This document shows positions 1,187 through 63,276 of a stretch of 64,000 nt of DNA, piece by piece; within the stretch, counting starts at the first letter, position 1, and each line of letters opens with the position of its first letter. The position numbers were made by a program, and so were the translations under genes. The notes below the pieces were generated by a model. It made no database searches. It was not told the DNA's origin and worked only from the letters and a program-made list of their open reading frames with translations. The stretch is from Candidatus Heimdallarchaeum aukensis (lineage in GTDB: Archaea; Asgardarchaeota; Heimdallarchaeia; Heimdallarchaeales; Heimdallarchaeaceae): contig CP084166.1 of the NCBI GenBank assembly GCA_021513695.1, forward strand, positions 224,001 through 288,000, read 5' to 3'.

Positions 1187-1371
1187 TATATAAACATAGA
1201 TTTTCTATTCTTATATTTTTTGAATAAATATTACATTATTTTTGAATAAACAAAGTTGTCCTAAACATTCTTTAAATCAATATCTTTCATATTTTTTTGA
1301 TTTGAAAAATAATTGTTTTTAAGATAATTTTATAAATAACCTCTATCTTTTGATAAAATAAGGAGTTAAAA

Positions 1372-35581: not shown

Positions 35582-36082
35582 TTACGTAAAAAATAGACGC
35601 ATGCTAGAAGTTAATTTCTTTAGAGATTCAAGAGGTATAGCTGAAAGATTATTTAGAATTGTAAACTCTAAATTCATTTTTGTTAATATTTGACTAAAAG
35701 CAGTTATCCTCTTCCTAGCATTAGACAGATGATCTCGTATGGTTGAAGGGCTATTTTGAGTAAACTTTGCTATTTCTTCTGATTTGAAATCTAAAATATC
35801 GTGAAGATAAAAACAAAGAAATTGTTTGTCAGATAAAACGGAAGAAACAGGATTAATATCAGAAAAATAACCAAGGTTTACTAATTTAGAAACAGTTTCT
35901 AAAAAATCTAATTCTTGAACTTCTTCTTTAATACTATCTTTCCTTTTAAAAGAAAAAAGAATAACTAAGGAAGCTCTTCTAATTTCCATGTTAATGAAGA
36001 GTTTTAAATGTTTAATACTTTCAGGAATTTTGGGTAAAAATTCTTTATGATCTTCATTTTTTACTAGAATCGAAAATTTCAT
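35582..36082 (-). CDS. sigma-70 region-4-like HTH protein
   Basis: LSDKQFLCFYLHDILDFKSEEIAKFTQNSPSTIRDHLSNARKRI fits the r4/LuxR-type HTH pattern. 166 aa. Confidence 0.45.
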   Translation of the reverse strand: MKFSILVKNEDHKEFLPKIPESIKHLKLFINMEIRRASLVILFSFKRKDSIKEEVQELDFLETVSKLVNLGYFSDINPVSSVLSDKQFLCFYLHDILDFKSEEIAKFTQNSPSTIRDHLSNARKRITAFSQILTKMNLEFTILNNLSAIPLESLKKLTSSMRLFFT

Positions 36083-36137
36083 TCAATAAATCAATCTCAC
36101 TAATTATTTATAAATGAAGAAAAAAAGATTTCTCATA

Positions 36138-36145
36138 TTTATAAA
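36138..36145 (+). promoter_or_regulatory. archaeal TATA box TTTATAAA
   Basis: It ends 24 nt upstream of the ATG at 36169, implying a leaderless or very short 5' UTR. Confidence 0.4.
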
Positions 36146-36168
36146 GAAATTCAATTATAAATCATTGA

Positions 36169-36801
36169 ATGAGAAAATTTCATGATTCAGAGAAAGAACA
36201 TCTATTTGAGCTAATAAGAATTATTCAAACAAGTTTAGATAGTATTCTTCAAAACAAAGATATCTATGAAAGTTCATATGTAGAAGAATTAGAAAAAAGA
36301 AATATTGCATTCATATCGTTATTAATCTATATCCAGAAAACGATTAGTGAAGTAATTTTGTGGGATTCTGAATTTGGAAAGGATTTATTTTTAGTCAATA
36401 AAGAAACTGATATTTCAAGAATTAGTAAATTAGACATTATAAAGGAAACAAATCTTATTGCTCAATCCATTACCCGACTAATTAAGCATTTAATTCAAAT
36501 TTTTTTGGATAGTAGAATGAAATATAAAATGGATATTTCTCAAGCAAATGAAACTCATCTTTTTCCTTTCCCCTTTTATTTTGAAAATGAAATGCAAATA
36601 CAGAGTTTAGCAGAAGCAGTTATAAAGATCGATAATCAATTAAGTAGATTATTTGACGAAGGATTTGTTACAAAATCTAGAAAAAGGAATATTAATTTAG
36701 ATTTGACAAATTCAATTTCTTTTGCAGATAAAGAAAATTTTAAACCTCACGAAAGACCTAATTTAGAAGATGTTCTTGATGAAATACTAATAGAAGGATA
36801 G
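36169..36801 (+). CDS. hypothetical helical protein
   Basis: 210-aa ORF preceded by a TATA box. No recognisable motif. Confidence 0.5.
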   Translation: MRKFHDSEKEHLFELIRIIQTSLDSILQNKDIYESSYVEELEKRNIAFISLLIYIQKTISEVILWDSEFGKDLFLVNKETDISRISKLDIIKETNLIAQSITRLIKHLIQIFLDSRMKYKMDISQANETHLFPFPFYFENEMQIQSLAEAVIKIDNQLSRLFDEGFVTKSRKRNINLDLTNSISFADKENFKPHERPNLEDVLDEILIEG

Positions 36802-36830
36802 CTATAGTCATTTTTTCTATTTCTTCTTTC

Positions 36831-36838
36831 TTTATAAA
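36831..36838 (+). promoter_or_regulatory. archaeal TATA box TTTATAAA
   Basis: It ends 29 nt upstream of the ATG at 36867. This favours ATG 36867 over the track's TTG at 36858 as the start. Confidence 0.4.
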
Positions 36839-36857
36839 GTAATATTAAGATAAGATT

Positions 36858-37595
36858 TTGAGTAAAATGATATTAAGTCAAGTTGAAAACATCTTACAAT
36901 ATGAGCAACCAGATGAAATTTCTCCTGCTTTACCAAGAAATCATTATATTTTTATTGAAAAACTTATCAAATTCCTATCAAATTCAATCAACTATCCTTC
37001 ATTGTGTGAAACAAGAAGAGTTTTTTTCTCAAATCTTCTAGTAATTACTGCATTAAATAACGAAAGTAAGTATTTAACAAAGAATTTTCTTACCTCTGCT
37101 TTTTTAGCTTTATTACGTAATGTTTCAGGGCATATAGACGCTAAATCTCTCCAAGATTTGATAAACCAAATTTCAGGTACATTTATAGGAGTATCAAAAG
37201 GAAAGGCTTTTTCGTTATCAAGCGTAAATAAAATAACAAATGAATTAATAAATCTAGGTATAATCAAAAAGTCAACTGTAGATTTTTTTACTTATGTTGA
37301 AAAAGAGGCATTAAAGTTGGCAAAAAAAACTTGTTCTCATTTTGAAGAAATTAGAAATATGTCAAAAAGTGTTTCGATAAAGATCTCAAGTTTAGTAAAG
37401 AAAAGAATTGTTCCAAGGATGAAAGTTAAACAATCATCAACAGTCTTAGTTCTATCTATCTTATTTAATTATTTACCAAGAAAAGGATATTATAGAGATA
37501 ATGTGTTCAAATTTGTTAGTGAAAAACAAAAAGTGGATTTTCAATTATTAAAGAAAAGAGTGTATAGATTTAGATCAAAATTTAATATTTCGTAG
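36858..37595 (+). CDS. TFB/TFIIB-core-like (double cyclin-fold) protein without Zn ribbon, tentative
   Basis: It is a paralog of 44359..45690. Paired blocks are KNFLTSAFLALLRN / NYFTSNLVAMYFLALLDH, FSLSSVNKITNELINLGIIKK / FSFYNIKKIQNDLYSRGILKRK, and KKRVYRFRSKF / KSVYRFRSRL (compare TFB IRNRYKEL). Confidence 0.35.
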   Translation: MSKMILSQVENILQYEQPDEISPALPRNHYIFIEKLIKFLSNSINYPSLCETRRVFFSNLLVITALNNESKYLTKNFLTSAFLALLRNVSGHIDAKSLQDLINQISGTFIGVSKGKAFSLSSVNKITNELINLGIIKKSTVDFFTYVEKEALKLAKKTCSHFEEIRNMSKSVSIKISSLVKKRIVPRMKVKQSSTVLVLSILFNYLPRKGYYRDNVFKFVSEKQKVDFQLLKKRVYRFRSKFNIS

Positions 37596-37678
37596 CTTTT
37601 TAGTAACTCAAGTTTGCTTTCTTTTCTTCTCTAAGATTAAATACTCAAAACTCTATTATTTATTAACTCTGAAAAAGA

Positions 37679-46425: not shown

Positions 46426-49400
46426 ATGAAAAAGAAGTTGAAATTCATGTTAATTATGTTTTTAGTTTTGCCATTATCATTAAATCATGTCTTAGCAGAA
46501 AATGTTATTGAACTATTAAATCTTCAATCAAGATATCCTATTAATTATAAAAGTAAAGATTCAGATGTTATTTCTATAAAATCAACAATTGGAAAAGACA
46601 ATGAATTATCTATCAGAAAAAAAGAGAATAGTGTAATAAGTTCGTTAAATAATGAGTTTGTTAGTCCTTATTCTCCTAAATTGAGTTATGGATTGTACAA
46701 AACTTTTACACAGATTTCATCTGTTCCTGAATCAATAAATAAAGGAGAAAATATTAGTGTAACTTCTTCAACAAAATTTGATTTAGGAACTTTATATCCT
46801 GTAGATCAAGGAACAATTTATTGGTATGATTTGAATTGTCTAGAAGAAGATCTGGGAGTAAGTACGAGTTTTGTAGAATCAAGTAAAATAGCTATCAGTT
46901 TTAATTTAACTTCTCCCTCTAACTATATGGGTGTTTATTTTGACATCTCAAATTTAGCAGATTTAACAGGAGATGTGTTAAACGTTTATCTTACTTCAGA
47001 TCTAGAAAACTATTCTACTGATTACCTGGCGAAAAGTGAACTGTCTTTTAAGTATTACAATTCTCAAGCTGGTGTATCTGGATTTTATGCTATTTATGAT
47101 AGTCCAACAACAACTCAAGTTGATAATTCCTTATTAGCAGGTGAAACATATTTTGTGGTTTTGGAAGGAGACAGTTCTTTGAGAATCGAAACATCACTTG
47201 ATTCAGAAGAATATGATGACAATAAAGTATATGTTTTTTCAGGGGGTTCTTGGGGTTTAGAACAAGGAATAGATGCAAAAATAAGAATATTCTCTGGTCA
47301 AAAAATTACTGAAAAAACTATTTCTTCTTCTAGCAATGGAGAAACTACAATAACTTATCAGTCATCTCAATCCTCTTTTAAATATCATACTTTAGTCGCT
47401 TTCTACTATGATACTTCTGGAATGTATGATCTTTCAAGTGATTCTTCAGATTTCAAAGTAATTGACAGCACAATTCCAGAGTATATTTCATTAAATAGTC
47501 CTTCTATAGCTGAATATACAGATTACATTGAGTTGAAAGCTTATGTTGAAAACTACTATCACCAAGAACTAGAAAATCAAACTGTATATTTCTATTACTC
47601 TGAAGATAACTCTTCATGGATAGAAATTGGTTCTTCCATTTCAGATAGTACAGGAGTGGCAAAGATAAATTTCTTAATCTCAAAAGCTTCTGGATACTAC
47701 TACTTTAAAGCAGTAACACAAAATTTAGAAACTTTTAACTATACTGAAACTACCAAAGAACAAGTAATTATTGAAACTCCTCTAGTTCAAACAATTTATG
47801 GAAATCTGAGTGGATCTGATACTTTAGAGACTTTTAGTTTGAAAGTACAAGTACATGATAATGATAATACTCCAATCTCTGGAGTAATGGTTTTCTTTTA
47901 TGTAGAAGGAAAAACTTTTGTTTACGACATTACTGATGAAAACGGTTACGCAAAAACGCATAGCTATTCAGTTAATTGGGCTGTTGGATACTATAACAAC
48001 AAATATTGGGTAAATATCGACTTAGATACTAATTTGTATTCATTTCCTGATACTCAATATGGTGACATTGAAGTACAAAAATCAAATTTACAAATATACA
48101 GTTTAGATAATAATACAATCAATGTCTGGATAAACGACTCCTATTTCTCTTTTGAAGTTAAAGACCCAGAAAATGATTCTGTAGCAAATATAGAATTTGA
48201 ATCAATTTTATATGATCCTTATTTTGATGAATATGTATCTTTAGGTTACGCATTTACAAATGATACAGGATATGGTAAAATTACCCTCCCAGCTTACTTT
48301 AAAGAACCAGGAAAGTATACTTTAATAATTCGCATTTCTGACCCTAACTACAATGTTATTGAAGAAAATCTGCAACTAGAATTATATGCTTCATCAAGTA
48401 TAATAGAGTGTAATTTACCTTCTTCAATCGAATATACATACAATTCTTCTTTACTAATTGAAGGGAATGTGACTGATATAAATGGTAAACCTCTAGCTAA
48501 CGCAAACATAACTGTAAAAATTACTGACCCAAGTATATCTAGTAATTGGGTATTATACATTTATACTACAGAGACAAATTCGCAAGGATACTTTTCTATG
48601 AATTTAACTCTAGATGTTGAAGTTGATCAGGAACTGGTTATAACTATTCATGTAGAAAATTATTATGGCTCTAATGGTGAGATTTCTTATTATGCTACAT
48701 CTTCACAAGAATACAATCTTCTATGTGTTAGGCGAGATGCTGAAATTTTAAATGTTCAAGACTTTATAACCCAGAATCAAGAAACAATAATAATATCTGG
48801 TTTGCTAATTGATTCTGGAGAACCTTTAAGTGGAAAAGAGATAAGAATAATTATTCAAGAAGAGAACTACTATATTATTACAGATACAGAAGGATGTTTT
48901 TACCTTAGTTACCAAGTAAATTTTGGTACAAATGTTAACTTTACAGTTGTTTTTGGGAGTGATAATCATTATAATGTTGTCAATTTAACAAGAACAATAT
49001 TTTCTTCTCCAATAAGTTTAAACATCGAAATTGAAGATGTTATTTGCAATCCAAACACTTTAATCTATTTATCAAGCTATGTCTATTCTGATTTAGGAAC
49101 AACACCTGAAAATGTGCAAGTAGAATTTTATTGGTATGATGAACAATGGATACTTTTAGGAATAGTTTTTACAAATGAATCAGGTATAGCTCAACTGAAT
49201 ATTACAAGTCCTGATAAGGTCGGAGAATTTAGCTGGAAAGCAATAGTTGTTCAAACTGAAGATTGGTTAGAATCATCTTCTAATTTGAAATTATTCCAAA
49301 TAGGTTATCACACCTCAATAAGTATGGAAGCACCAATACAAGGACAATATGGAAATGAAATTAGAATTAATTTCACAGTTACAGATCAATTTGGACAACC

Positions 49401-52791: not shown

Positions 52792-52806
52792 ACCATTTTT
52801 TCTTTC

Positions 52807-52814
52807 TTTATAAA
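52807..52814 (+). promoter_or_regulatory. archaeal TATA box TTTATAAA
   Basis: It ends 35 nt upstream of the ATG at 52849, suggesting an internal promoter within the cluster. Confidence 0.35.
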
Positions 52815-52848
52815 TAAATTACAAAATAATCCTAGTAAGGTTGAATCT

Positions 52849-54264
52849 ATGAACAACAAAGAGAAAAATCAAAAACTATCCTTTTTAAAAAATCAATATA
52901 GTAGACTACTCGATAAATTATCAAAGTCAATTGTAGTAAAAATCAGAGAACAAGGAAAACTCCCTTTCTTTTTAGTAGTTTTAATTTGGATAGTTTTCTG
53001 GGGAAGCTCCTTTTACTTTATTACAGTCTTTATGCCTGTTAATTTGTTGTGGTTAAGAGTATTCTTACCTGTATTTATTTCTCTTATTGTTGTTAATGCT
53101 TCAACAGAATTAGGAAAAAAGGTAGTGGGTTATCATAATGAAAAAGAAGAGAAAGTTGAGAAAGAAAGTTCTTCTTCTCTCTTAAGTGAAGAAAAGGACA
53201 TTTCTACAAAAGAAGGTTATTCTTTGAAATCAACTTTCATTCTTCGTGATAAGAAAGGGAAAAAAATTTTTCTTATTAATAAAGGCAAAATTATTCCTGT
53301 TTTTTTGGTTAGCATATTGAGTACAGGAAACAAAGAAAAAGGATACACATTTTCTTCTTTGTTGAATTATCCTTTAAGAAATGAAATGAAAGAAATAGAA
53401 TTTTCAGTTTTAGACACAGATAAAGGAGAATATTTGCTTTTTCTAGGAAAAGAATACAAAACTAAAAACAAAAATTATACAGAATTATTAAAGGAAAATG
53501 AACAGTTTTTCTCAAAAATAGAGATTATAGTTGCTGAATTAAAGAGAGACAATAATTTAGAATTAGAAGCTGTTGAAGATTCAATACTTAATGAGCTTTT
53601 TCCTCTTTATTCTGAAGTATTATGTTGTAAAAATGAAGACACTAACAAAAAGGAACAAAAAATAGAAGAAAAAAATCATCTACAGTTAAAGAGTGAAAAT
53701 AATAATCTAAATAATGCAAATAATGGAAAAGAATATAATCAAAATGGTGAGAGCAGTAATAGATTCAGACCTTTTTCAGTTAAAACTGAACTTACACCAT
53801 ACCAATTAACGAAGGTTGCAGAAAAAAAAGAACTACTATTATCTGAACTCACTTATTCTTTTGATAATTTCATTGATATGTCTAAAGTATTTTATAAAAA
53901 AGCTCTTGAACATCAATTGAACGCAAAGTTTCCTATCTCCGAGGATAATTTTCTTAAACTTATACAACTCTTTGTAGAAAAGAATAAGTATGAATTCTTT
54001 TATCCAAGTTTCTTTAAACTAGAGAAGTATGAATCTTTCAAAGTCTTTGAAACTCCTAGTTCAGAAGAGATAGAAGAGTTTTCTGAAGAACTAGTAAAAG
54101 AATGTATGTTTACTAATTTAGATACTGAAGTAAAGAAAGAGTTGCATTCCTTCCTTACTCAAAAAATCAAAAATAGGAAGCATAGGCAAGAAGTAAAACC
54201 TGTAGGAATTAAAGTATCTTCTACAATTCCTAGGCCATCAGTAAAATCTTTATCAGAATCTTGA
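52849..54264 (+). CDS. membrane-anchored hypothetical protein
   Basis: 471 aa. Two to three N-terminal TM segments, then a soluble region with a low-complexity N/K/E linker. Confidence 0.5.
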   Translation: MNNKEKNQKLSFLKNQYSRLLDKLSKSIVVKIREQGKLPFFLVVLIWIVFWGSSFYFITVFMPVNLLWLRVFLPVFISLIVVNASTELGKKVVGYHNEKEEKVEKESSSSLLSEEKDISTKEGYSLKSTFILRDKKGKKIFLINKGKIIPVFLVSILSTGNKEKGYTFSSLLNYPLRNEMKEIEFSVLDTDKGEYLLFLGKEYKTKNKNYTELLKENEQFFSKIEIIVAELKRDNNLELEAVEDSILNELFPLYSEVLCCKNEDTNKKEQKIEEKNHLQLKSENNNLNNANNGKEYNQNGESSNRFRPFSVKTELTPYQLTKVAEKKELLLSELTYSFDNFIDMSKVFYKKALEHQLNAKFPISEDNFLKLIQLFVEKNKYEFFYPSFFKLEKYESFKVFETPSSEEIEEFSEELVKECMFTNLDTEVKKELHSFLTQKIKNRKHRQEVKPVGIKVSSTIPRPSVKSLSES

Positions 54265-54273
54265 GGAGATTGA

Positions 54274-54909
54274 ATGATTGAAATAGTTTTTTTGAATTTC
54301 TTGAATCTCTTTGTTAAAATATGGCTATCAGCTCTTTTAATTAATATTCTACTTTCCACTCTCTTAAAACCAATTTATAAACATCTGTTGGCAATAGGCT
54401 TGGTTTTCAATTTACCAATTAAGCGACTATTTTATTGGATCTATAGAGTACCCATTGAGAATATAGATTGGGAAAACGGTCTAATTAGAACAAAGAAAGT
54501 GAATAATATGGATTGTCTAGCAACTACAGTTGTGATCATGCCTGTATTTATTTTAAGCTACTTATCTAGTTGGTTATTCTATTTTGCAGGTAAAATCTAT
54601 CCCTATGGTTACAAGTTCTTTGGAATTGTTCTTTATATTGTCGCTTCGTTAAGTCTAGCTTTCAGTATTCCTAACTTTGAGGAATTGAAATTGTTTAATA
54701 ACATTAATCTTCATTCCTCTTTGGTCTATTTACTAAAATGGGTATTTGTAGTTATAGTTGTCTTTTCAATAGTTGAGTTTACTTCTATCTCTCTTGATGT
54801 ATTAACTACAGTGATATTAGTTCTTTTAGCTACTCCATTTTATAGTTATAAAGAAGATGAAGAAAATGTAGAGAATATTAAGAAAATTATTGGTGATCCA
54901 TTTGCATAA
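54274..54909 (+). CDS. polytopic membrane protein (paralog of 45683..46423)
   Basis: 211 aa. LAFSIPNFEELKLF pairs with FAFFSIPDVQDLMLPF in 45683..46423. Confidence 0.5.
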   Translation: MIEIVFLNFLNLFVKIWLSALLINILLSTLLKPIYKHLLAIGLVFNLPIKRLFYWIYRVPIENIDWENGLIRTKKVNNMDCLATTVVIMPVFILSYLSSWLFYFAGKIYPYGYKFFGIVLYIVASLSLAFSIPNFEELKLFNNINLHSSLVYLLKWVFVVIVVFSIVEFTSISLDVLTTVILVLLATPFYSYKEDEENVENIKKIIGDPFA

Positions 54910-55525
54910 ATGGACTCTTTCCAAAAATGAGCGAATGATACATCTTTATGGTCCCCCAGCAAGTGGTAAGACTACTTTAGCAATTCAATTATCTAGAAAA
55001 GTCTTTCCTCGCTCAACAATTTATTTCATTACTTCGCATAGAAACGCAATTACAAAAAGAGCAAAACAGATACTAAACAAGAATTATCTTAAAGAATTTT
55101 ATTTAATTAAAGTTTCTAGTTTAGATGATTTATTTGAAAAAATTCAATCTATTAATAGCTTAGGAAAAACAATAGGATTGATTGTAATAGATTATATCTC
55201 TGATTTTGTTAGAGGGAAGCTATACAAGGAAGAAGTAAAAAACAAGGTAAGGAAGATATTAGAAAAACTTTTTATTTTCTCCTCACAAAAAGATTGTTTA
55301 GTTGTGATAGTCAATAGTTTTTCAATAAAAAATGAAGCTCCTTTGAATTCTTTAGTTGAAAGTTTTTGTGACATGTCAGTTTATTTGTCGATTAAAGATG
55401 ACAAATACAATTTGGAATCAAATGGTAAAAATATAAAAAGAACTTTTGTAGTCGATGAAAAAATTATTTCCAGCTTCGTTATTGATGAAAAAGGAATTAA
55501 AGATTTAATTATTGTGTCTGAATAA
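54890..55525 (+). CDS. RadB/KaiC-like RecA-superfamily P-loop ATPase
   Basis: Walker A HLYGPPASGKTTLAIQLS, Walker B GLIVIDYISDFVRG, then LVVIVNSFS and a C-terminal FVIDEKGIKDL, giving a RadB-like layout. The start is ambiguous (TTG 54890, GTG 54893 or ATG 54935). Confidence 0.65.
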   Translation: MVIHLHKWTLSKNERMIHLYGPPASGKTTLAIQLSRKVFPRSTIYFITSHRNAITKRAKQILNKNYLKEFYLIKVSSLDDLFEKIQSINSLGKTIGLIVIDYISDFVRGKLYKEEVKNKVRKILEKLFIFSSQKDCLVVIVNSFSIKNEAPLNSLVESFCDMSVYLSIKDDKYNLESNGKNIKRTFVVDEKIISSFVIDEKGIKDLIIVSE

Positions 55526-55585
55526 ATTTTTTTCCTTTAAATAGTATTCTTTAGATTAACTAATAAAAAAGGAAGTCAATGGTTA

Positions 55586-56056
55586 ATGTATTCAGAGCAA
55601 GAAGTGATAAGAAAAATAACAGAAACTTGGAAATTTGAAAATAAAGTATGCGTGAAAGAACTACAAATTCCTTTAGTAGGCAAAAATATCAATTATCCTT
55701 TTTTAGAAAATAGAAAAAGCATTCGTATAGATCTTGCTTGCTATGATATTGTATCTGATAAAATTATTTTTGTTGAAGCAGAAAATGGTCTGTGGCTTCC
55801 TCATCCCCAAATTTATAGACCTTTTTGTGATATGTTATATGTTGCTACTCCCTATGATGATAGTTACTATAGAGAAAAGCAACTTGAGTGGGCAAAAAAT
55901 GAAGGAATAGGAGTAATTGAAGTTCTTTATGATGGTTACATTATAGAAACATTAAAACCTGTAGTTTTTCCTGATTCGATGGATATCTCTTTAAGAGAAG
56001 AAGTTCTAGCACATTTTGTTAAGAAACTCAAAAAAAACGAAAAAATAGCTGATTGA
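55586..56056 (+). CDS. MmcB-like / PD-(D/E)xK nuclease-fold protein, tentative
   Basis: IRIDLACYD..KIIFVEAENG is a D..ExK-like core with K replaced by E. It is followed by YRPFCDMLYVATPYD and EGIGVIEV, resembling the MmcB-family Y..CD.fYfa.P..G pattern. Confidence 0.4.
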   Translation: MYSEQEVIRKITETWKFENKVCVKELQIPLVGKNINYPFLENRKSIRIDLACYDIVSDKIIFVEAENGLWLPHPQIYRPFCDMLYVATPYDDSYYREKQLEWAKNEGIGVIEVLYDGYIIETLKPVVFPDSMDISLREEVLAHFVKKLKKNEKIAD

Positions 56057-56113
56057 TTTTTTATTACTAATTTTTTCTCTCTTTTAAAAACAATTTTATT
56101 TATAATTTAGCTG

Positions 56114-59100
56114 ATGAAAGGAACTGCTATTGCCACATCAAAATTTCAAGGTAAGAATCAAGCTATTTATTCAATAAAAAAAGATGATAAAATTACTTTA
56201 TACTGTGCGTTCATTATTAGACCAAAAAAGAAAGAAGTTGAGAAAAAAGGAGATTATGAAAAAAAAACTACTATTTTTGTAACAGATACTAAAAGTCTTT
56301 TTTTGCCTTTGAATATTGATTCAAGTCTAAAAATTATGCTTCACCGCTTTATTTTACCAGCTAAACTCAGAAAAATAACAAAAGAAAAAAATAAAGGAAT
56401 AGAAATCTCTAGAAAAAAAGAAGAGAGTGAAGAAATCAATGTATTTTTAACTTATTATATCTTTAAAATCTCAAAAACTTATGATCTTACCGTAAATTTA
56501 CTTTCAATGAATACATTGTTAGAAGATTTTGCAGAAACTGTTAGATCTAATTTAAAAGAGTTGTTCTTATCTTTAGGAGCAGTAGGAAGAATAACAGGAG
56601 AATTATTAGAAAAAATCGTTTGTTTGAATGTTACAGATAAATCGTCTATTATCAATAACAACTCTAAAGAATTTTTAACAGAGCTTGCAAAAGAGTTTGT
56701 TGTAATAGAAAAAAGTACAGAAATCCAATCAATTTTCCTCCCTGGTCCTTCCGTAGATTTAAGAACTTCGAGTGTATTTTTTACTCCTTCAAGAATAGAA
56801 TCTGCTTTTCCTTTAGGGAAGACGGAAGAAGGTTTTCTTGTAGGCTTTCCTCCCTCTTTCTCTTACCCCATACTTTTGTGTGGAGATAAGAAAATAAGAA
56901 AAATTTTACTCTCCAAAATTTTAGAAAATTCATCTGCTAAATTTATTGTTTTAGGAGAGATAAATGGAAAAATAAGAAAAAAGAATGTAAAGTTAAGTTT
57001 AGGAGAGAATTTTACATTTAATATCTTATCTCCTATGTTTATGCGAAAAGTACTGTCAGAGAGAGATTATTGGCGTTATCTGAGTGATTTTCTACTCATA
57101 GTTAAAGAAGTAACCGAAGTTAGAAATGAAAATCTTTTACAAATTCCTGAAATAATTAAATTTTATATCCAAGAATATGAACAAAGTGAAGATAACCTCT
57201 TTACTCCTTTTGATTATAGTTCTGTAACTATTGACGATATTTATACAATGCTTACATCTGAACCTGGAGGATTAATAATTTCAGATTATCAATTAGCTGC
57301 TTTACGTTCTGTTTTTACTGATATTAGCGATAATTCAGTTAGCACGGTAACTAATATTAATGGAAAACATGGAATTGAAGCATTAATTGACCAGAACCAT
57401 ATAATTGACTTCAGTAAACATTCAATAAAAGTTAGAAAAATATTCGTTTATTCGTTATTGCTTCAACTTTATTTATATTTTCAAACAGATTTAATTTCTA
57501 AACCAGTAATAGTAGTAATCGACAATGCAGAATTATTCTTTTCAACTGAAGTTGAAAGAACTTTTATTTCAAAACTACTCACACTATTTGAATCTCTACC
57601 TGTAAATATTATCCTTTCAACAAGTTTTCCTTCTCATCTAGCTCTTACTGCTTTTGATTTAACAAATAATAGAATTATAGCTAATCTTCGCTCTGCTAAG
57701 TGTGCAAAATTAATTGCTGATTCACATAATTTATTAAAAGAACAGAAAGAAATGCTTCTTCGCCTTCCACAAAATTCCTTTCTTATCCTCCGGGAAGATT
57801 TTTTTGAGAAACCCTTTCTTGCTTACTTACAAAGAGAAGATCTAAATTTGTTTTCTAATTCCAGACGATTCAATCTTGAAAAATTGGATTCATTAGTAGA
57901 TATTGGAAACACTAGTGCAATTTTAGAAGATGAAAATAGAGTAATTGAACCTATTTTTGATGAAGAAGATCTTCTTCCTATTATGATTGATATTTTAAGA
58001 AAACTTGATTCTAAAGCTCAAAGGGGAATCAACTCTGAATCATTGGTTAATCTCTTTCCTGACTATCCTGCAATTGAAGTTAAGAATGCTGTAAAATTAT
58101 TAGAGTTAAGAGGATTGATTTTTCGTGAGACAGTTGATAAAGAAGGAAGAAAAGGTGAATTTTGGACAAAAATAAGTCCTTTAGGCAAGAAAATGTTATC
58201 TAGATTCGAGATTCAATCCATAGCAAAGAATGATAAAATTGACAAAGTTGAACGAAAAGAAGAGGAGATAACTATTTTAAAAAATGAACAAAGTCATAAT
58301 GAAAAAATATCTAACAAAAAGCAAAACAATGGAAAAAAAGATTCTTTAGAACAATCAGAAGTTATTAACCATTTAGAGAAGGTACAAAACAATTTAAAAA
58401 ATAGTAGGAATCCTGTTGATGCTTTTTTGGATTCAATAATGAAAGTTGAAAAAAAAGCCATACAAATATTCTCAAGAAAAGGTAAAAAGATAGGTAAAAT
58501 TTCAGATTTTTACATTTTGTTACATGACTTTATCCAAAAGGCAAAAGCTGTAGATTTCAATATTCAATCAGAGCTAAAAGAGTTTGAGCAGTACTTAAAC
58601 TCACTTTATGATGTTTTAGAAGATAGTGAATCCCTTGAACAAATGTCAGATGAAATATTAGAAAGAGTAATGAGAAAAGGATTAAATCTCTTAGATCAGA
58701 TACATGTTAAATGTTCTTTTGATAAGATCGAAAGAAACTCCAGTAATCTTCCAGAACTTCTTGAAAAAGAATTAAATTCTGATAAATGGGAAAACATTGA
58801 AACTAAATTTGATGATGAAGTAGTGAGTGATATTAAGCATAATATAAAGAATGACATACAATCAATGTTCTTAACTGATTCTGAAAAACAAGTTTTTCAG
58901 GTACTTAATCATGCATTAGAAGCTCCTAAAGACAGTTTTATTGATTATGCTAGAAAAGCTATAGCAAGACTAATGAAAATAAAAATGCAGTTTTACCCTA
59001 ATCTCGATGATAAAGAGTTTATTATTATTTTTGTAAGATTCTTTGAAAAAAATCAATTACCAATACCGTTTAATGAATCGATTCTGATGGTTGATGAACT

Positions 59101-59269
59101 AGCTTTTCTTAGCACAATTTCCAAACAAAAGAAAAAGGAAATAATCGCGAAAATAATAGAGGAAAATAACTCATTTGTGTTTGATTTAGATGATAAAAGT
59201 AAAGATAGTCTTGTTATTCAGTTAAAGGAAATTGTCTCAAAAAGTCTAAGAAAGTTAAAAGAGGAATAA
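56114..59269 (+). CDS. large HerA/FtsK-superfamily-like protein with degenerate Walker motifs plus a winged-helix-like segment
   Basis: PLGKTEEGFLVGF..YPILLCGDKKIRKILLSKIL occupies the P-loop position. PVIVVIDNAELFF occupies the Walker B position. It continues with NIILSTSFPS. Later comes VKNAVKLLELRGLIFRETVDKEGRKGEFWTKISPLGKKML. 1051 aa. Confidence 0.45.
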   Translation: MKGTAIATSKFQGKNQAIYSIKKDDKITLYCAFIIRPKKKEVEKKGDYEKKTTIFVTDTKSLFLPLNIDSSLKIMLHRFILPAKLRKITKEKNKGIEISRKKEESEEINVFLTYYIFKISKTYDLTVNLLSMNTLLEDFAETVRSNLKELFLSLGAVGRITGELLEKIVCLNVTDKSSIINNNSKEFLTELAKEFVVIEKSTEIQSIFLPGPSVDLRTSSVFFTPSRIESAFPLGKTEEGFLVGFPPSFSYPILLCGDKKIRKILLSKILENSSAKFIVLGEINGKIRKKNVKLSLGENFTFNILSPMFMRKVLSERDYWRYLSDFLLIVKEVTEVRNENLLQIPEIIKFYIQEYEQSEDNLFTPFDYSSVTIDDIYTMLTSEPGGLIISDYQLAALRSVFTDISDNSVSTVTNINGKHGIEALIDQNHIIDFSKHSIKVRKIFVYSLLLQLYLYFQTDLISKPVIVVIDNAELFFSTEVERTFISKLLTLFESLPVNIILSTSFPSHLALTAFDLTNNRIIANLRSAKCAKLIADSHNLLKEQKEMLLRLPQNSFLILREDFFEKPFLAYLQREDLNLFSNSRRFNLEKLDSLVDIGNTSAILEDENRVIEPIFDEEDLLPIMIDILRKLDSKAQRGINSESLVNLFPDYPAIEVKNAVKLLELRGLIFRETVDKEGRKGEFWTKISPLGKKMLSRFEIQSIAKNDKIDKVERKEEEITILKNEQSHNEKISNKKQNNGKKDSLEQSEVINHLEKVQNNLKNSRNPVDAFLDSIMKVEKKAIQIFSRKGKKIGKISDFYILLHDFIQKAKAVDFNIQSELKEFEQYLNSLYDVLEDSESLEQMSDEILERVMRKGLNLLDQIHVKCSFDKIERNSSNLPELLEKELNSDKWENIETKFDDEVVSDIKHNIKNDIQSMFLTDSEKQVFQVLNHALEAPKDSFIDYARKAIARLMKIKMQFYPNLDDKEFIIIFVRFFEKNQLPIPFNESILMVDELAFLSTISKQKKKEIIAKIIEENNSFVFDLDDKSKDSLVIQLKEIVSKSLRKLKEE

Positions 59270-59281
59270 AAAGGGAGAAGG

Positions 59282-61393
59282 ATGAATGAAATAGAGTTAA
59301 GTTCTGAAAAACTAGAGGATTTTCAACAGAGGTGTATGGAAACTTTTTTGAAAAAAGAAAATTGCCTTATTTCTTCTCCTTCTTCTACAGGAAAAACATT
59401 TCTAGTTAAAGAATATATTAAAAATTACATTATAGAAAACTACTCAACTATTCTACGATCTCCTAAAAAAATGAAAATAGTGCTACTGTTTCCTTATAAG
59501 GCGATTGCTATACAAGAATTTAACTCACTAGTCGATTTTGCAGAAAAAAAGATGATCAAGATATTCTTATCTGTTGGAGGAGTAAAGTTAAACAAAGAAA
59601 CAGTAATGGAAGCAAATATTATTGTTGGAACATTTGAAAAGTTTTACTTCATTTTGAATCTATTCCCTGAAATTCAAAAGAACTTGAAAATATTGGTAAT
59701 AGATGAATTTCACTTTTTAGGTTATAATAGGGGAAAAGTGATAGAAAGTATATTATTAAAAGTTAAGGAAAACAAAAATACACAGATTATTCTTTTATCC
59801 TCATCAATCGGGAATCCTGAGGAAATAGCAAGTTGGTTAGGCTTTAAACTTTTGCAATATAATAAACGCTTAGTACCGTTGGAATTGAATATAAAAAAAA
59901 TTGAAAAATCTCTTATACAAGAAATATTTTCAATCAGCAAAGCTAACTTACCTGCTATTATATTTCAAAACTCAAGATCTAAAGTAGAAAAATTAGCTCT
60001 AGAATTAGCAAAAAAAAGAAAAGATGTATTGATAAAGAATTTCGAAGAGTTTTTCGTAAATTCTCCTAACCTTATTTCAATAATGGAAGAAGTTTATTTC
60101 CCTGATAAACTAAAAGAAGCAATTTCAAAGAGAGTGGCTTATCATCATGCAGGTTTAAGTGATATAGTTAGAGTATTTGTAGAACAATTATTTCTTTCTG
60201 GAGAGATTGATTACTTGATTTCTACTTCCACTCTGTCAGCTGGAATAAATCTTCCAGCTAAAATGTCAATTTTTGTTATAGAAAGAAAACAATCTGAAGT
60301 TGATAATAATTTAATTTTTCAAATTCTGGGGAGAGCAGGAAGATTTGAGTTTCAAGATAAAGGAATAGGAATTCTATTAATAAGACCAGCTTATTTGAAA
60401 GAATATAGCGACAAACTTTTTGACCAAAGAGGAAAACCTATTTACAGTAGTTTAAAAAGCCAATTTTTTGACTATGATTTTTTGATCAAATATTTTCTGG
60501 TAGAAATCGCATTTTCTAAGGAACCTGTTTCAGTAAGGATAGAAGATTTATTAAAAAAAATCGAGAATTCACTATGGTTTTATAGTAACAAAGAAATATT
60601 CTTAGTATTTAACTCTAAAGATGTTCATTATGCACTTTTTTCTCAAGCCTACTCAAGTTTGGATTATGAAGAGATAGTTGATTATTATGAGAAATTAGAT
60701 GAAGCTTTTGGTATAAAGCCTTCTAATTTACAACTCGTTTCTAAGCAAGAAAAAGGCAAAGGTAACTTCTCTTTTATAATTTTAGAGAATGAAAAAAAAT
60801 ACAAAGTAATTATGAATTTAGAAAGAAGACAATGTTCTTGTCAGTCAAAGTACAGCAATTATCTTTGTAGACATCAGCGTTTTTTGATTAAGATGTATCC
60901 TTTCATGAAAGAATATTGGTTAAATAAATATGGAATAATCGATTGGCTGATCGATAATGGTTTTTTAGTTAGAAGCAAAGGAATGAAGGTTAATCCTACT
61001 TTATTGGGAAAAATTTCTGCAAAATTTTTTATTCACCCTTATTCTTTTCTTCATTTTCTTCATTTATTAATTATCTATCCTAACATTAACTTTTCCTCTT
61101 TTTTTACTAAAGTTGTTCTATTCGATGAACAAATAAAGAGAGATATTAAGTCAAATGAACTAACAAATATACAAGCTTTGCAAATATTTCAACTATTAGT
61201 AAAACAAGAACCATTAACAATATGCTCAAAATACAATATTTCAGACAGTCTATTAGAAAATTGGCAAGAAATATATACCAAGTACAAGAGTTTATTTTTT
61301 GAATTAAAGAAACTTATGGGAAAAAATCTAGCAAAAGGGAACTTTACAAATAATTTCCTCACGAAAAATGAAGTTGAAGAAACAATTCGTTAA
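59282..61393 (+). CDS. Ski2/Hel308-like DExH helicase with SWIM-type zinc finger
   Basis: Motif I SSPSSTGKTFLV, II VIDEFHFLG, III LSSSIGN, then HHAGL, STSTLSAGINLPA and VI QILGRAGR. The SWIM finger reads RRQCSCQSKYSNYLCRHQ (CxC..CxH). Confidence 0.8.
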   Translation: MNEIELSSEKLEDFQQRCMETFLKKENCLISSPSSTGKTFLVKEYIKNYIIENYSTILRSPKKMKIVLLFPYKAIAIQEFNSLVDFAEKKMIKIFLSVGGVKLNKETVMEANIIVGTFEKFYFILNLFPEIQKNLKILVIDEFHFLGYNRGKVIESILLKVKENKNTQIILLSSSIGNPEEIASWLGFKLLQYNKRLVPLELNIKKIEKSLIQEIFSISKANLPAIIFQNSRSKVEKLALELAKKRKDVLIKNFEEFFVNSPNLISIMEEVYFPDKLKEAISKRVAYHHAGLSDIVRVFVEQLFLSGEIDYLISTSTLSAGINLPAKMSIFVIERKQSEVDNNLIFQILGRAGRFEFQDKGIGILLIRPAYLKEYSDKLFDQRGKPIYSSLKSQFFDYDFLIKYFLVEIAFSKEPVSVRIEDLLKKIENSLWFYSNKEIFLVFNSKDVHYALFSQAYSSLDYEEIVDYYEKLDEAFGIKPSNLQLVSKQEKGKGNFSFIILENEKKYKVIMNLERRQCSCQSKYSNYLCRHQRFLIKMYPFMKEYWLNKYGIIDWLIDNGFLVRSKGMKVNPTLLGKISAKFFIHPYSFLHFLHLLIIYPNINFSSFFTKVVLFDEQIKRDIKSNELTNIQALQIFQLLVKQEPLTICSKYNISDSLLENWQEIYTKYKSLFFELKKLMGKNLAKGNFTNNFLTKNEVEETIR

Positions 61394-61404
61394 ATATTTC
61401 TCGG

Positions 61405-61412
61405 TTTATAAA
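61405..61412 (+). promoter_or_regulatory. archaeal TATA box TTTATAAA
   Basis: It ends 29 nt upstream of the ATG at 61441. This favours ATG 61441 over the track's TTG at 61432. Confidence 0.35.
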
Positions 61413-61431
61413 TTATTTCTTTTATTATCAT

Positions 61432-63276
61432 TTGAAGCTGATGAAAAGAGATAATTTCCTACTTACATTTTTAATTTTAATTATAGTATGTACAATTTTA
61501 CTTATTCCGCTTTATTTTACTGAAGCTCACTATTTAGAACAAGAGGAAGAAAAAAAGCAAATAAAAAATGAGCTTCAATCTACTATCCTTATTCCTCATG
61601 ATATTGTCTTTAATTTCACAGATAAACTTTCTAAATACACTTACTCTTTTGTTCAGAATCTTACATTAAGTGGATTATATGGTTTAGAAATTCTGTTTAA
61701 AACTGGTGGGAGTTTAGCTTTAAGTGATACCTTAAAAGTAAAGATAGTTATGGAGGATAGAATAAATATCAGCTTCACAATAGATAAATTATTTCAAGAC
61801 TCCAATATTCATTCTTTAACAAAAAGTCTTTATTGTGAAAATATTGGAGAAGAAGCAAAGATAACAATATATTTTGAAGGACAATGTTTCATTGGAAAAG
61901 AGGGTAATCTAACTCTTTTCAAAACTATTAATCTTTATTCTTATGATATTCTATCTTTAAAAACAGAAAAAATTATTAGTCCTGACGTTATCCCTCATTC
62001 TATCTCTTTTTCAGGGAATTCTTTCTCCAAAAAGACTTTTTCTGTAAAATCATTTTTTAATGTAGAAAATACAAACATCACAAAAATTAAGTTAAATTTT
62101 ACATTTAATACAAATGATTTTGTTTCACTAGAAAGAAAAATAACTTTTCAGATAGGTTCAAACCTTACAGAAAAGGATTTTAGTTCAGGATTAAACACAA
62201 TTTTATTGTCATTAGATTGTGGAAGTGATCTAAATATTTTGAATATCTCTTTTACAGTAGGTTATAGCTCTGATATCATACATTTAGAGGATTTTAGTTT
62301 AAGTATTGAAGTAGAGAAAGAAGAAGAAACAAGTAAAGAAAGAGAAATTCTTGAATTTAAAGAATGGGAAGGAGATAAGATAGATTTAACTTTTGACATC
62401 TCAATTCTAAAAAATGAGCAGAGTTCTAAGGAGTTAATAATAAACTTAAATCTTAGTTGTGGTTTTGAAGGTGCAACTGTAACTCCTTACATTGAATTTA
62501 GAATTATTTCTGGAATATATACTATTTATACAGGAAAAGTAATGAGTTATGAACAAAGCGAAGAAGAGTTAATAAAAATAAATACTTATACCTACACTTA
62601 CAATAAACCTCTATTAGTTAACTTTTACGCTAAATTAGAAAATAGTGGGAAAGGACAGATCTTTATTTACAATTCTTCTAATCTTACTGCTTCAAAAATC
62701 CCACAAATGTCTTCTAAAGGTTTATTTAGGGAAGTAGAATCAGAGAAAAACGTCTACACTCCTCAACTAGGTGCAGTCATCCTAAATTACTACGATGTCT
62801 TTTTCAATGATTATTCATTAACAATAGATTATGTTTTTAATTTGACTTTTACCCTTTTCACAGATTATGATGAAGTTTTTGATAGAATAAATGTTGGAAT
62901 AACAATAGGCGTAAATACTTCAATAAATAAGATTTTTAGTAAACCTGGTAAGATCTCAATTACTGAAGACGTTAAAATCTATCAAGGATATAACGAGGTT
63001 AAAATCAAGTTAACAATTTATGGTTCAGGAACCTATGTCTCTCTCAGAAATATAACTTATAGACTTAATCCGATTAAAGATTTTTCTTTTCAAGATGAAA
63101 ATCAAACAATTAGTTCGGTAAATATTCCCTTGATAAAACCCCCTTATACAATAAGTTTAGGAATAAGTTCGATTTTAGGTCAATGGGTAATTGGAGGAGT
63201 ATTCGCTAGAGTGTTTAACAGTAGCAAAAAGAAAAATAAACTCTCTAAAAATATGAAATATAAGTTAGAGTTTTAA
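61432..63276 (+). CDS. beta-rich surface protein with N- and C-terminal hydrophobic anchors
   Basis: N-terminal TM/signal FLLTFLILIIVCTILLIPLYF, many NxS/T sequons, and a C-terminal ISLGISSILGQWVIGGVFARVF followed by a basic tail. Confidence 0.6.
   Translation: MKLMKRDNFLLTFLILIIVCTILLIPLYFTEAHYLEQEEEKKQIKNELQSTILIPHDIVFNFTDKLSKYTYSFVQNLTLSGLYGLEILFKTGGSLALSDTLKVKIVMEDRINISFTIDKLFQDSNIHSLTKSLYCENIGEEAKITIYFEGQCFIGKEGNLTLFKTINLYSYDILSLKTEKIISPDVIPHSISFSGNSFSKKTFSVKSFFNVENTNITKIKLNFTFNTNDFVSLERKITFQIGSNLTEKDFSSGLNTILLSLDCGSDLNILNISFTVGYSSDIIHLEDFSLSIEVEKEEETSKEREILEFKEWEGDKIDLTFDISILKNEQSSKELIINLNLSCGFEGATVTPYIEFRIISGIYTIYTGKVMSYEQSEEELIKINTYTYTYNKPLLVNFYAKLENSGKGQIFIYNSSNLTASKIPQMSSKGLFREVESEKNVYTPQLGAVILNYYDVFFNDYSLTIDYVFNLTFTLFTDYDEVFDRINVGITIGVNTSINKIFSKPGKISITEDVKIYQGYNEVKIKLTIYGSGTYVSLRNITYRLNPIKDFSFQDENQTISSVNIPLIKPPYTISLGISSILGQWVIGGVFARVFNSSKKKNKLSKNMKYKLEF

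Follow-up and report, generated by a model that had tools for sequence, protein, structure and literature searches.

A palindromic TATA-like octamer and a box-anchored TTGA element as predicted core promoters of leaderless and short-leader genes in Candidatus Heimdallarchaeum aukensis

We found that the intergenic copies of the octamer TTTATAAA, a perfect palindrome, stand within a narrow range of distances upstream of start codons in a 64,000-nucleotide stretch of archaeal DNA (the window). In all likelihood these boxes belong to core promoters of the TBP/TFB type that would give an Asgard archaeon its leaderless or mini-leader mRNAs. This reading of the sequence is supported by the placement of the boxes, by the conservation of the islands in which they lie, by a TTGA element that is anchored on the box, by the mutual exclusion of boxes and SD sites, and by a spacer that fits published geometry.

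Results

Source of the DNA and its relatives

A protein encoded in the window is 100% identical to K9W45_01060 of Candidatus Heimdallarchaeum aukensis, which is the source of this DNA; the archaeal assignment made in the earlier note on the sequence was borne out. The closest sequenced relative, Ca. H. endolithica PR6, carries a syntenic ortholog cluster. Another locus of PR6 (L003) was considered as a divergent comparator and dropped, as it is a decayed pseudogene fragment. The 602-aa, 611-aa and 242-aa proteins belong to families confined to Heimdallarchaeum, with identities of at least 75%; a search for remoter homologs found none. Rfam and tRNA scans of the whole window gave no matches. 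The 36-63 kb cluster, on which we concentrate here, showed no match to a known defence system or virus in PADLOC and PHROGs scans. For the cluster, these scans yielded only a helicase resembling HamB and a weak match to a mad8-like ATPase.

Placement of the octamer

Six copies of TTTATAAA had been listed in the earlier note (36138, 36831, 38941, 39376, 52807 and 61405). All six are real and lie 5' of + strand ORFs, at distances of 24, 29, 24, 28, 35 and 29 nt, respectively (counted from the end of the box to the A of the ATG), which agrees with the claimed spacing of 24-35 nt. The list was incomplete within its own range: five further copies had been omitted, two of which (36107 and 41504) belong to predicted minus-strand promoters, while three (50179, 53891 and 54374) lie inside genes and show none of the other features of a promoter. 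An additional promoter-positioned copy was identified outside the cluster, at 1329.

The window contains 14 copies in all, against 13.1 +/- 3.5 expected from dinucleotide shuffles, which is not above chance. In a genome with a GC content of 29%, this total would be consistent with the octamers being functionless words that arise by chance in AT-rich intergenic DNA. Since the total equals the chance expectation, it was dropped as evidence and the signal was sought in placement, by means of compartment-specific and positional tests. With intergenic DNA (12% of the window) and coding DNA each given a Markov model of its own, 2.6 fully intergenic copies are expected, as against the eight that were found (or nine, should the gene begin at 38972), and 11.2 copies are expected in coding DNA, as against five; the octamer is therefore enriched approximately 3-fold in the former and depleted approximately 2-fold in the latter. 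Moreover, a start codon lies 31-43 nt from the first T in all nine intergenic octamers, whereas this is true of only 6% of intergenic positions (P~1e-11). Among the 21 box-proximal genes, 20 have TTTATAAA or a variant with one or two mismatches whose first T lies 31-37 nt before the start.

Conservation across lineages also runs counter to the chance origin of these words, since every box that can be compared with a diverged relative is conserved while its flanks diverge. All six boxes located between 36 and 41.5 kb (36107, 36138, 36831, 38941, 39376 and 41504) are present at equivalent positions in PR6, and each of the five alignable upstream regions is conserved in three to four Heimdallarchaeum lineages. 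The stretch from about 10 nt 5' of the box through the ATG is ~100% identical while the neighbouring coding sequences diverge. In the case of the 61405 island, there are three variable sites among four lineages, with protein identity as low as 81%; the 52807 box was compared with one 96%-identical relative only. In orthologous loci of three to four lineages, the box is thus under purifying selection. Taken together with the TTGA element described below, which accompanies the boxes in an orientation-specific manner, these observations effectively refute the explanation by chance, and we consider it extremely improbable.

A TTGA element in fixed register with the box

The boxes are accompanied by a second element, absent from the earlier note. 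In six of the ten gene-facing exact boxes (P~2e-9), TTGA (more generally N-TGA) follows the first T by 27-28 nt, compared with one of nine reversed boxes and none of ten intragenic boxes. Its register with the box is fixed, and its distance to the start codon is variable (4, 5, 7, 8, 9 or 11 nt). Because the register follows the box and not the ATG, we interpret TTGA as an initiator (Inr). Lying at offset 27/28, it would supply the two bases expected of an initiator, a pyrimidine at -1 and a purine at +1, and its spacing from the box is constant. Comparison of lineages points in the same direction: at the 39376 promoter the bases on either side of TTGA differ while TTGA itself is constant, and at the 38941 promoter the element reads GTGA in the window, TTGA in PR6 and CTGA in L004, with TGA invariant.

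The individual predicted promoters

The individual promoters are described below with the distance d, the number of nucleotides by which the first T of the box precedes the start codon. At the head of the cluster, two boxes face away from each other. The minus-strand box at 36107..36114 (conserved in PR6 and L005) precedes the HTH gene 35582-36082, with TTGA at 36086-36083 and ATG 36082 (d=32), and the plus-strand box at 36138..36145, also conserved, precedes the gene 36169-36801, where TTGA (36165-36168) directly adjoins ATG 36169 (d=31; predicted leader 1-2 nt). Between the stop codon of this gene (36801) and the next box there is a plus-strand pyrimidine/oligo-T tract (36809..36830, with T6 at 36811), whose box-proximal TTCTTTC is kept in PR6. 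This tract probably terminates the upstream gene, or is an element that flanks the box in this class of promoters, or both. The box that follows it (36831..36838, plus strand; conserved in relatives) belongs to the cyclin-fold gene 36867..37595, which, read from its revised ATG start, encodes 242 aa with two cyclin-box repeats. The TTGA of this promoter (36858..36861, offset 27) places the predicted TSS at G36860 or A36861, and its TTG would be a spurious start of the longest ORF.

The next plus-strand box (38941..38948), which is again conserved in relatives, shares its final A with ATG 38948, the start codon that we reject. The last A of its N-TGA element (38969..38972) is that of ATG 38972 (d=31; predicted leader 0-1 nt), the revised start of the plus-strand gene 38972..39349, which would encode 125 aa and not 133. 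The box at 39376..39383 (plus strand) precedes the 602-aa gene starting at ATG 39411 (d=35), with TTGA at 39404-39407 and its TTG out of frame. On the minus strand, the box at 41504..41511 (d=32) serves an 83-aa ORF (41228-41479), which is conserved and called in all relatives.

Less exact boxes were also found. The plus-strand TATA-like box TTTAAATA occurs at 41542..41549, upstream of a RadA paralog (ATG 41578, d=36), and again at 42727..42734, where the TTGA at 42753-42756 contains the TTG of the longest ORF and GTG 42762 is the likely start (an independent gene call gives 381 aa). Another plus-strand variant, TTTAAAAA, at 56083..56090 (d=31), precedes 56114-61393 and has a TTTTTTCTCTCT tract 5' of it. 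The remaining exact boxes in promoter position are all on the plus strand. That at 52807..52814 (d=42) precedes the operon 52849-55525, in which the predicted leader of ~12 nt, AAGGTTGAATCT (52837-52848), holds a weak SD. The box at 61405..61412 is followed by TTGA at 61432..61435 (offset 27), whose TTG would likewise be a spurious longest-ORF start, and by the membrane protein gene 61441..63276, which from its revised ATG encodes 611 aa (orthologs are called as 611, 611 and 609 aa). Outside the cluster, the box at 1329..1336, whose 5' flank is purine-rich, precedes the gene of an AMP-binding enzyme (d=43, with ATG 1372); the predicted leader is ~12 nt long and holds the SD AGGAG.

Predicted leaders and translation signals

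Predicted from the geometry of box and TTGA, leaders are 0-2 nt long for 36169, 38972, 36082 and 41479, 4-5 nt for 39411, 6-7 nt for 36867 and 61441, and 12 nt for 52849 and 1372. If leaderless is taken as 0-5 nt, the term would apply strictly only to 36169 and 38972; 39411 would be a borderline case, and 36867, 61441 and 52849 would have longer leaders. In Haloferax, for which leaderless transcripts are defined by a 5' UTR of 0-5 nt, leaders of this length are common, AUG is dominant among leaderless starts, and a leader of 7 nt falls outside the range (PMC4983044). Of the 21 box-proximal starts, only 52849, for which the predicted leader is 12 nt long, has an SD, compared with 13 of the 25 other starts (Fisher P=0.0009). 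Genes internal to operons have strong GGAGG/GGTGA SD sites.

These data suggest the following course of events. TBP would bind the palindromic box TTTATAAA, and the asymmetric flanks would set the direction of transcription. RNA polymerase would then initiate ~29-30 nt past the first T, at the G or A of the T-T/N-G-A initiator. Because the start codon is only 31-36 nt from the box, the resulting mRNAs would be leaderless or carry mini-leaders of 1-7 nt without an SD, and with leaders so short and SD-less, translation would begin at the first AUG (36169, 36867, 38972, 39411 and 61441). The 52807 and 1329 promoters, placed 42-43 nt upstream, would instead produce leaders of ~12 nt opening with an SD-like AAGG, and genes internal to operons would be translated via their GGAGG/GGTGA SD.

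At 36811, 39364, 52796, 55527 and 56057/56071, the stretch from the upstream stop codon to the box contains an oligo-T run of 6-7, which supports the previously suggested presence of internal promoters in the co-directional cluster. The oligo-T found just 5' of most boxes probably terminates the preceding gene, and in this case the long co-directional cluster would consist of about a dozen separate transcription units.

Choice of start codons

Our results argue for the start codons preferred in the earlier note at all three genes in which alternatives had been raised, i.e. ATG 36867 over TTG 36858, ATG 38972 over ATG 38948, and ATG 61441 over TTG 61432. In the second of these genes, ATG 38948 overlaps the box, and substitutions within the 24-nt extension fall at codon positions 1 and 2 only. 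In the other two, the rejected TTG is part of the TTGA element.

One might suppose that TTG 36858 and TTG 61432 are the true starts, in which case the transcript would open with the first T of TTGA (offset 27) and its leaderless UUG would be translated. In favour of this, TTGA lies exactly 9 nt before the start, and in frame with it, in six genes, and the TTG-to-ATG stretch is conserved, its 9 nt being invariant at 36858 among the compared lineages. It also agrees with the annotation of one ortholog of the 36867 gene, called by NCBI as 245 aa from the TTG; the call of JGI/ENA is 242 aa, and other pipelines choose the ATG. Direct alignment is non-discriminating in both genes: between the window and PR6 the box-to-ATG stretch at 36858 is invariant, and among the four lineages aligned at 61432 the sole change (CTG to CTT, upstream of ATG 61441) would be synonymous if coding. 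The choice between TTG and ATG in these two genes is therefore decided only by analogy with other promoters.

This analogy speaks against the TTG starts. TTGA at the same offset is out of frame, or soon runs into a stop codon, at 36138, 36107, 39376 and L006:17804. In the window gene 21917, TAGA, with an in-frame TAG stop, occupies the exact site of TTGA in the PR6 ortholog, although the two align without gaps and share the N-terminus MVRRPK; the TTG is dispensable. Were the TTG the start, all six of these genes would happen to have a second start codon as their fourth codon, which is implausible, and in Haloferax the mutation of AUG to UUG abolished leaderless translation (PMC4983044). On the other hand, a TTG or GTG start on a very short leader appears to be needed in the window genes 4103, 16014 and 42762 and in a gene of a relative (L006:18019), so the preference for AUG is not absolute here. 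All six of the cited genes have an ATG at the expected position. We judge initiation at TTG 36858 and TTG 61432 to be improbable. A TldD paralog whose start was revised to 8760 has its first Pfam domain at residue 27, compared with 29 in its neighbour.

Possible other roles for the conserved islands

The conserved islands (~60 nt) extend from ~10 nt 5' of the box to the ATG, which exceeds what a box and an Inr require. They might therefore be primarily operators for a cluster-specific regulator, for which the divergent HTH gene at the head of the cluster, with its Sigma70_r4_2-like product, could be a candidate, or 5' UTR/RNA elements within longer transcripts beginning farther upstream, in which case ATG 38948 and the two TTGs could be part of the mRNA and serve as starts. 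With respect to the latter, the spacer before 61405 has no oligo-T run of five or more, and read-through from 59282-61393 is plausible. Against both stands the same geometry of box, TTGA and start at unrelated housekeeping genes whose spacers have diverged (21917 in comparison with PR6, an aldehyde dehydrogenase of L006, AhpC 14904 and TldD 8760), and no SD was found before 36858, 38948 or 61432. An operator or UTR function is compatible with the boxes being promoters and does not exclude it; as an explanation of the islands we regard it as unlikely.

Pyrimidine flank and cyclin-box proteins of the cluster

The promoters of the cluster differ from the others in their 5' flank. At positions -8..-1 they have a median of 7/8 pyrimidines, compared with 3/8 elsewhere in the window and in L006 (Mann-Whitney P=0.0003), and in ~9 of 11 cluster promoters the sequence directly 5' of the box fits TTTCTYYY. 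An A/purine-rich BRE just 5' of the TATA box occurs only in the non-cluster promoters. We rejected the possibility that the pyrimidine tract is solely the oligo-T terminator of the upstream gene, since it is also found at the divergent promoters 36107, 36138 and L006:17804, where there is no gene upstream, and co-directional promoters that lie elsewhere do not have it.

The cluster also encodes two cyclin-box (TFB-core-like) paralogs (36867-37595 and 44359-45690), which have a C-terminal core of two cyclin-box repeats, with TM-scores of only 0.3-0.4. In the 242-aa product of the former, a disordered stretch (residues 1-20) precedes the helices, the first of which begins at residue 24, and a CxxC pair is lacking; the N-terminus lacks a zinc ribbon, B-reader and B-linker. 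No Pfam family, those of TFIIB and cyclins included, matched this protein at E<=0.01, and no PDB match was obtained by phmmer or profile. Its family is confined to Heimdallarchaeum, and hhalign revealed no relationship with the neighbouring ORFans 36169 and 38972.

It is conceivable, though rather doubtful, that the 36-63 kb cluster forms a self-contained transcription module with its own class of promoters (TTTATAAA plus TTTCTYYY), the flank of which would be read by the zinc-ribbon-less paralogs 36867 and 44359, co-regulating the RadA paralog, the helicases and a giant surface protein. If true, the archaeal lineage nearest to eukaryotes would possess a specificity factor resembling the TFB core, or else an archaeal cyclin-like protein.

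Discussion

The arrangement described here resembles the gene-start architecture of group D of GeneMarkS-2 (Halobacterium, Haloferax, Sulfolobus/Saccharolobus and Thermococci), in which a box is located ~22-26 nt before the starts of first-in-operon genes, without an SD, while internal genes have an RBS of SD type (PMC6028130). According to the same study, the promoter box of archaea lies ~26 nt from leaderless starts (22-24 nt in H. salinarum), with RBSs serving the remaining genes. The spacer of our d=31-32 class (23-24 nt) and the significant exclusion of SD sites agree with this pattern. Unlike group D, however, there is a second, equally populated class with a spacer of 27-29 nt (d=35-37) and implied leaders of 4-7 nt, which are rare in Haloferax (PMC4983044). 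The host lineage, moreover, is Asgard, in contrast to the group D examples.

With the canonical BRE/TATA/Inr core promoter (Methanocaldococcus, Saccharolobus, Pyrococcus), the predicted promoters have in common a TATA element of 7-8 bp and a putative Inr with T(A/G) at -1/+1. If the TSS is the G of TTGA, the centre of the box would be at approximately -25.5 to -26.5; published work on archaeal promoters places the TATA box ~28 nt upstream of the TSS (PMC8553660). They differ in two respects: pyrimidines prevail directly 5' of the cluster boxes, whereas characterised archaea have an A-rich BRE, and the four-base TTGA is more extended than the archaeal dinucleotide Inr, T(A/G) at -1/+1 (PMC7289017). 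The closest fold for the 36867 product and its 44359 paralog is the core domain of TFB/TFIIB together with cyclins; in contrast to TFB/TFIIB, the 36867 protein has only this core and gave no profile match. A literature search for promoter studies in Heimdallarchaeum or the Asgard lineage found none.

The mechanism is well known in other archaea, and our finding is therefore confirmatory rather than surprising. The only candidates for new biology could be the promoter class with the pyrimidine flank and the cyclin-box proteins encoded by the cluster. Of practical value is a gene-start rule for Heimdallarchaeum, according to which a TTG located 27-28 nt past a TATA-like box would be read as part of an initiator and not as a start codon. 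The rule revises at least eight starts in this window, and public pipelines disagree on the starts of Heimdallarchaeum genes, as in the case of the 245-aa and 242-aa calls mentioned above. The four-base initiator TTGA is a prediction that is open to direct test.

To conclude, this in silico analysis suggests that an Asgard archaeon uses the classical dual system of archaea, in which box-proximal first genes would be expressed from leaderless or mini-leader mRNAs and internal genes would be led by an SD. This may serve as a baseline for studies on the origin of eukaryotic transcription and translation initiation.

Octamer placement

This analysis revealed that the palindromic octamer TTTATAAA, a TATA-type box identical to its own reverse complement, occurs 14 times in the window. 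Dinucleotide shuffles of the whole window yield 13.1 +/- 3.5 copies, so its frequency by itself carries no signal. The coding and intergenic compartments were separated by means of 48 non-overlapping ORFs (coding fraction 88%), and expected counts were taken from a first-order Markov model fitted once per compartment. Eight octamers lie fully inside intergenic DNA (nine if the gene downstream of the 38941 box starts at 38972), compared with 2.6 expected (P=0.005), and five lie in coding DNA, compared with 11.2 expected. Each of the nine non-coding copies is followed, in gene orientation, by a start codon 31-43 nt from the first T of the box, a placement shared by 6% of intergenic positions (P~1e-11). 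Across the promoters, box-to-start distances (d) form two classes, of 31-32 and 35-37 nt.

The six copies recorded in the earlier note (36138, 36831, 38941, 39376, 52807 and 61405) were all found again at these coordinates, and its spacing of 24-35 nt is right if counted from the last base of the box. Its list lacked two copies serving minus-strand genes, at 36107 (gene 35582-36082) and 41504 (an 83-aa ORF, 41228-41479), each with d=32, as well as the intragenic copies 50179, 53891 and 54374 within the same range. The 83-aa ORF, which is convergent with a 602-aa gene and has a perfect TTTATAAA box to itself, appears as a gene call in all related contigs; the sequence around its start hardly varies over four lineages.

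Conservation of the promoters and the gene cluster

The 602-aa protein encoded from 39411 matches K9W45_01060 of Candidatus Heimdallarchaeum aukensis at 100% identity, and a syntenic cluster is present in Ca. H. endolithica PR6 (CP084167.1), which confirms the proposed archaeal assignment. Wu et al. 2022 (PMC8813620) reported both as circular Asgard genomes, in a paper that makes no mention of TATA, promoter, leaderless or start codons; our literature search on promoters in the Heimdallarchaeum lineage found no paper. Further contigs of related Heimdallarchaeaceae were included in the comparison.

In the left part of the cluster the octamer is kept in PR6 at all six equivalent positions. The alignments are essentially invariant from about 10 nt 5' of the box through the ATG, and the adjoining coding DNA has diverged. 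The clearest case is 61405, where an island of ~60 nt has three variable sites over four lineages (down to 81% protein identity) and the coding sequences on both sides are heavily substituted. The 52807 box is kept in the sole comparator recovered (L006, 96% identical), which gives little information on selection. PR6 also contains a fragment of the 602-aa gene that has decayed to a pseudogene (L003 9966-10700, within 141954-162619 of CP084167.1), at most roughly 20 kb from the intact cluster and in opposite orientation; it retains the TTTATAAA box and spacer and has lost the ATG and reading frame.

About 140 nt 5' of the 38941 box, whose promoter is intact, H. aukensis carries a 1,011-bp insertion sequence (37789-38799) with an rve/IS481-like transposase (37854-38792). 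A 15-bp target-site duplication, TGTTTATCTCACGAC (37774-37788 and 38800-38814), borders the insertion and is single-copy in PR6, where the transposase is absent. The insertion is recent in H. aukensis.

The cluster also brings together a DEAD-box helicase (59282-61393), a 1,051-aa protein (56114-59269), a small RecA/KaiC-like ATPase (54890-55525) and a RadA paralog (41578-42669). The helicase is HamB-like with a SWIM finger (PADLOC E~3e-34) and the 1,051-aa protein has a weak mad8-like ATPase match; comparison with known defence systems and viruses gave no complete match. At least four Heimdallarchaeum lineages retain the cluster. A nearby 484-aa gene (33989-35443, minus strand) appears absent from the syntenic PR6 interval; its upstream region is extremely purine-rich (aaaaagaggaaagaaggagaaaagagaaag), and PR6 (L002 249-608) has a similar purine-rich leader before an unrelated ORF.

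An initiator-like element in register with the box

In promoter-positioned boxes, anchored in gene orientation, the tetranucleotide TTGA begins at offset 27 or 28 from the first T. Counted on exact octamers, whose placement leaves no freedom, it occurs there in six of ten gene-facing boxes (P~2e-9; background 0.0073 per position), in one of nine of the same boxes read in reverse, and in none of ten intragenic octamers in either orientation. The distance from TTGA to the start codon varies (4, 5, 7, 8, 9 or 11 nt; exactly 9 nt in six genes). Its register thus follows the box and not the start codon, which marks it as a signal for transcription, not for translation. Lineage L004 has substitutions on both sides of the 39376 TTGA and none inside it; across three lineages the 38941 element opens with G, T or C and keeps TGA unchanged.

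TTGA matches the archaeal initiator, T(A/G) at -1/+1 (PMC7289017). With transcription predicted to start at its G, the box centre lies at about -25.5 to -26.5, in agreement with the archaeal TATA distance of ~28 nt quoted in PMC8553660 and with the 22-26 nt that separate box and start in leaderless archaeal genes (PMC6028130).

In its reverse orientation the 38941 box is likewise followed by TTGA, again at offset 27, and the 70 nt on its 5' side (38870-38940) are as conserved as the promoter itself in four lineages; this reverse signal may represent a divergent non-coding transcript or a bidirectional promoter.

Start codons

The earlier note preferred ATG 36867 to TTG 36858 and ATG 61441 to TTG 61432. 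Both TTG codons are the TTG of the respective TTGA, so with transcription predicted to begin at its G or A they would be absent from the mRNA. Direct comparison does not discriminate: the 9 nt from TTG 36858 to the ATG are invariant between lineages, and the sole change at 61432 (CTG to CTT) is synonymous if coding. At testable loci elsewhere, the rule that the TTG of TTGA is not a start holds. The alignment of gene 21917 with its PR6 ortholog has no gap between box and ATG, and both products begin MVRRPK; PR6 has TTGA at offset 27, giving a longest-ORF TTG start 9 nt 5' of the ATG, and at that codon the window has an in-frame TAG stop (TAGA in place of TTGA). At 36138, 36107, 39376 and the L006 aldehyde dehydrogenase promoter (tttccttc-TTTATAAA-N19-TTGA-N7-ATG), TTGA is either out of frame or runs into a stop shortly afterwards. 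Ortholog calls in JGI/ENA start at the ATG (242 aa; 611, 611 and 609 aa) and one NCBI call starts at the TTG (245 aa), so the ambiguity is real in public annotation. ATG 36867 and ATG 61441 are very probably the true starts.

The choice of ATG 38972 over ATG 38948 was likewise upheld. The A of ATG 38948 is the last base of the box, and this codon therefore cannot be on a transcript from the 38941 promoter; ATG 38972 lies at the canonical d=31. Among lineages the intervening 24 nt differ by two substitutions, one at a second codon position (TAT to TGT), one at a first and none at a third, a pattern that hints faintly against coding. We consider ATG 38972 a probable true start.

By the same geometry, five further longest-ORF starts look wrong: TTG 8781 of a TldD homolog (minus strand; revised to ATG 8760, d=32), TTG 33238 of an HTH gene (plus; revised to ATG 33247), TTG 42753 of a membrane protein (plus; revised to GTG 42762), and two minus-strand cases, 4112/4103 and 16023/16014, in which a TTGA-type TTG is followed by another TTG 9 nt on, with no ATG nearby.

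Predicted leaders and Shine-Dalgarno motifs

With transcription starting at the initiator's G or A, predicted leaders are 0-2 nt for starts 36169, 38972, 36082 and 41479, 4-5 nt for 39411, and 6-7 nt for 36867 and 61441. The two exact boxes with longer spacing (d=42-43) would give 12-nt leaders for 1372 (1359-1371, AAGGAGTTAAAA) and 52849 (52837-52848, AAGGTTGAATCT). Both begin with the SD-like AAGG, so that the mRNA would open with its Shine-Dalgarno motif (SD). The proposal that transcription begins at the first ATG or a few nt 5' of it therefore agrees with the predicted leaders at five of the six sites, the exception being 52849 with its short SD-bearing leader. In Haloferax the strict leaderless definition is 0-5 nt, and longer short leaders are rare (PMC4983044).

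Window-wide, an SD accompanies one of 21 starts with a TATA-like box 27-39 nt upstream, compared with 13 of 25 others (Fisher P=0.0009); the two features are nearly mutually exclusive. Operon-internal genes carry GGAGG/GGTGA. This combination of box-proximal starts lacking an SD and SD-led internal genes is the dual "group D" architecture described by GeneMarkS-2 for most archaea (PMC6028130).

Probable internal promoters and terminators, and the upstream flank

Archaeal transcription terminates at oligo-T. Runs of 6-7 T separate the stop codon of the preceding gene from the box that follows at 36811, 39364, 52796, 55527 and 56057/56071, positions that fit such termination; the 19 co-directional genes would then be divided among about a dozen units. 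Internal promoters in the long cluster, as earlier suggested, gain support from these runs. At 61405 no T-run precedes the box, so read-through from 59282-61393 is possible.

A hairpin at 37679-37737 (GGAGAGTGT...ACACTCTCC; -25.3 kcal/mol, z=-3.3, none of 200 shuffles as stable) begins about 80 nt 3' of the stop (37595) of gene 36867-37595 and is followed by a T8 run (37749-37756). It is conserved in PR6 (L002 9294-9350), has no match in Rfam, and is a possible terminator-like element or small RNA.

The 8 nt 5' of the cluster boxes follow TTTCTYYY (pyrimidine median 7/8), in contrast to a purine-rich flank elsewhere (1329, 8785, 21881, 33210; median 3/8; Mann-Whitney P=0.0003). The pyrimidine-rich flank is found in about nine of 11 cluster promoters (e.g. 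36823-36830, 38933-38940, 39368-39375, 52799-52806, 56075-56082), including divergent ones with no upstream gene to terminate; its composition is opposite to that of the A-rich BRE in characterised archaea. The protein from 36867 has a TFB-core-like or cyclin-like fold; since it lacks a zinc ribbon and gave no Pfam hits and no PDB sequence hits, it is not filed as TFB. A link between the cyclin-fold proteins and the unusual flank is speculation and seems unlikely.

Conclusions

The octamer observation is confirmed, and several independent computational lines support its interpretation as a promoter element of transcripts with short leaders. The system has the ordinary promoter/leaderless architecture of archaea, here reported from a Heimdallarchaeum, which adds a further case to an architecture already known in archaea.
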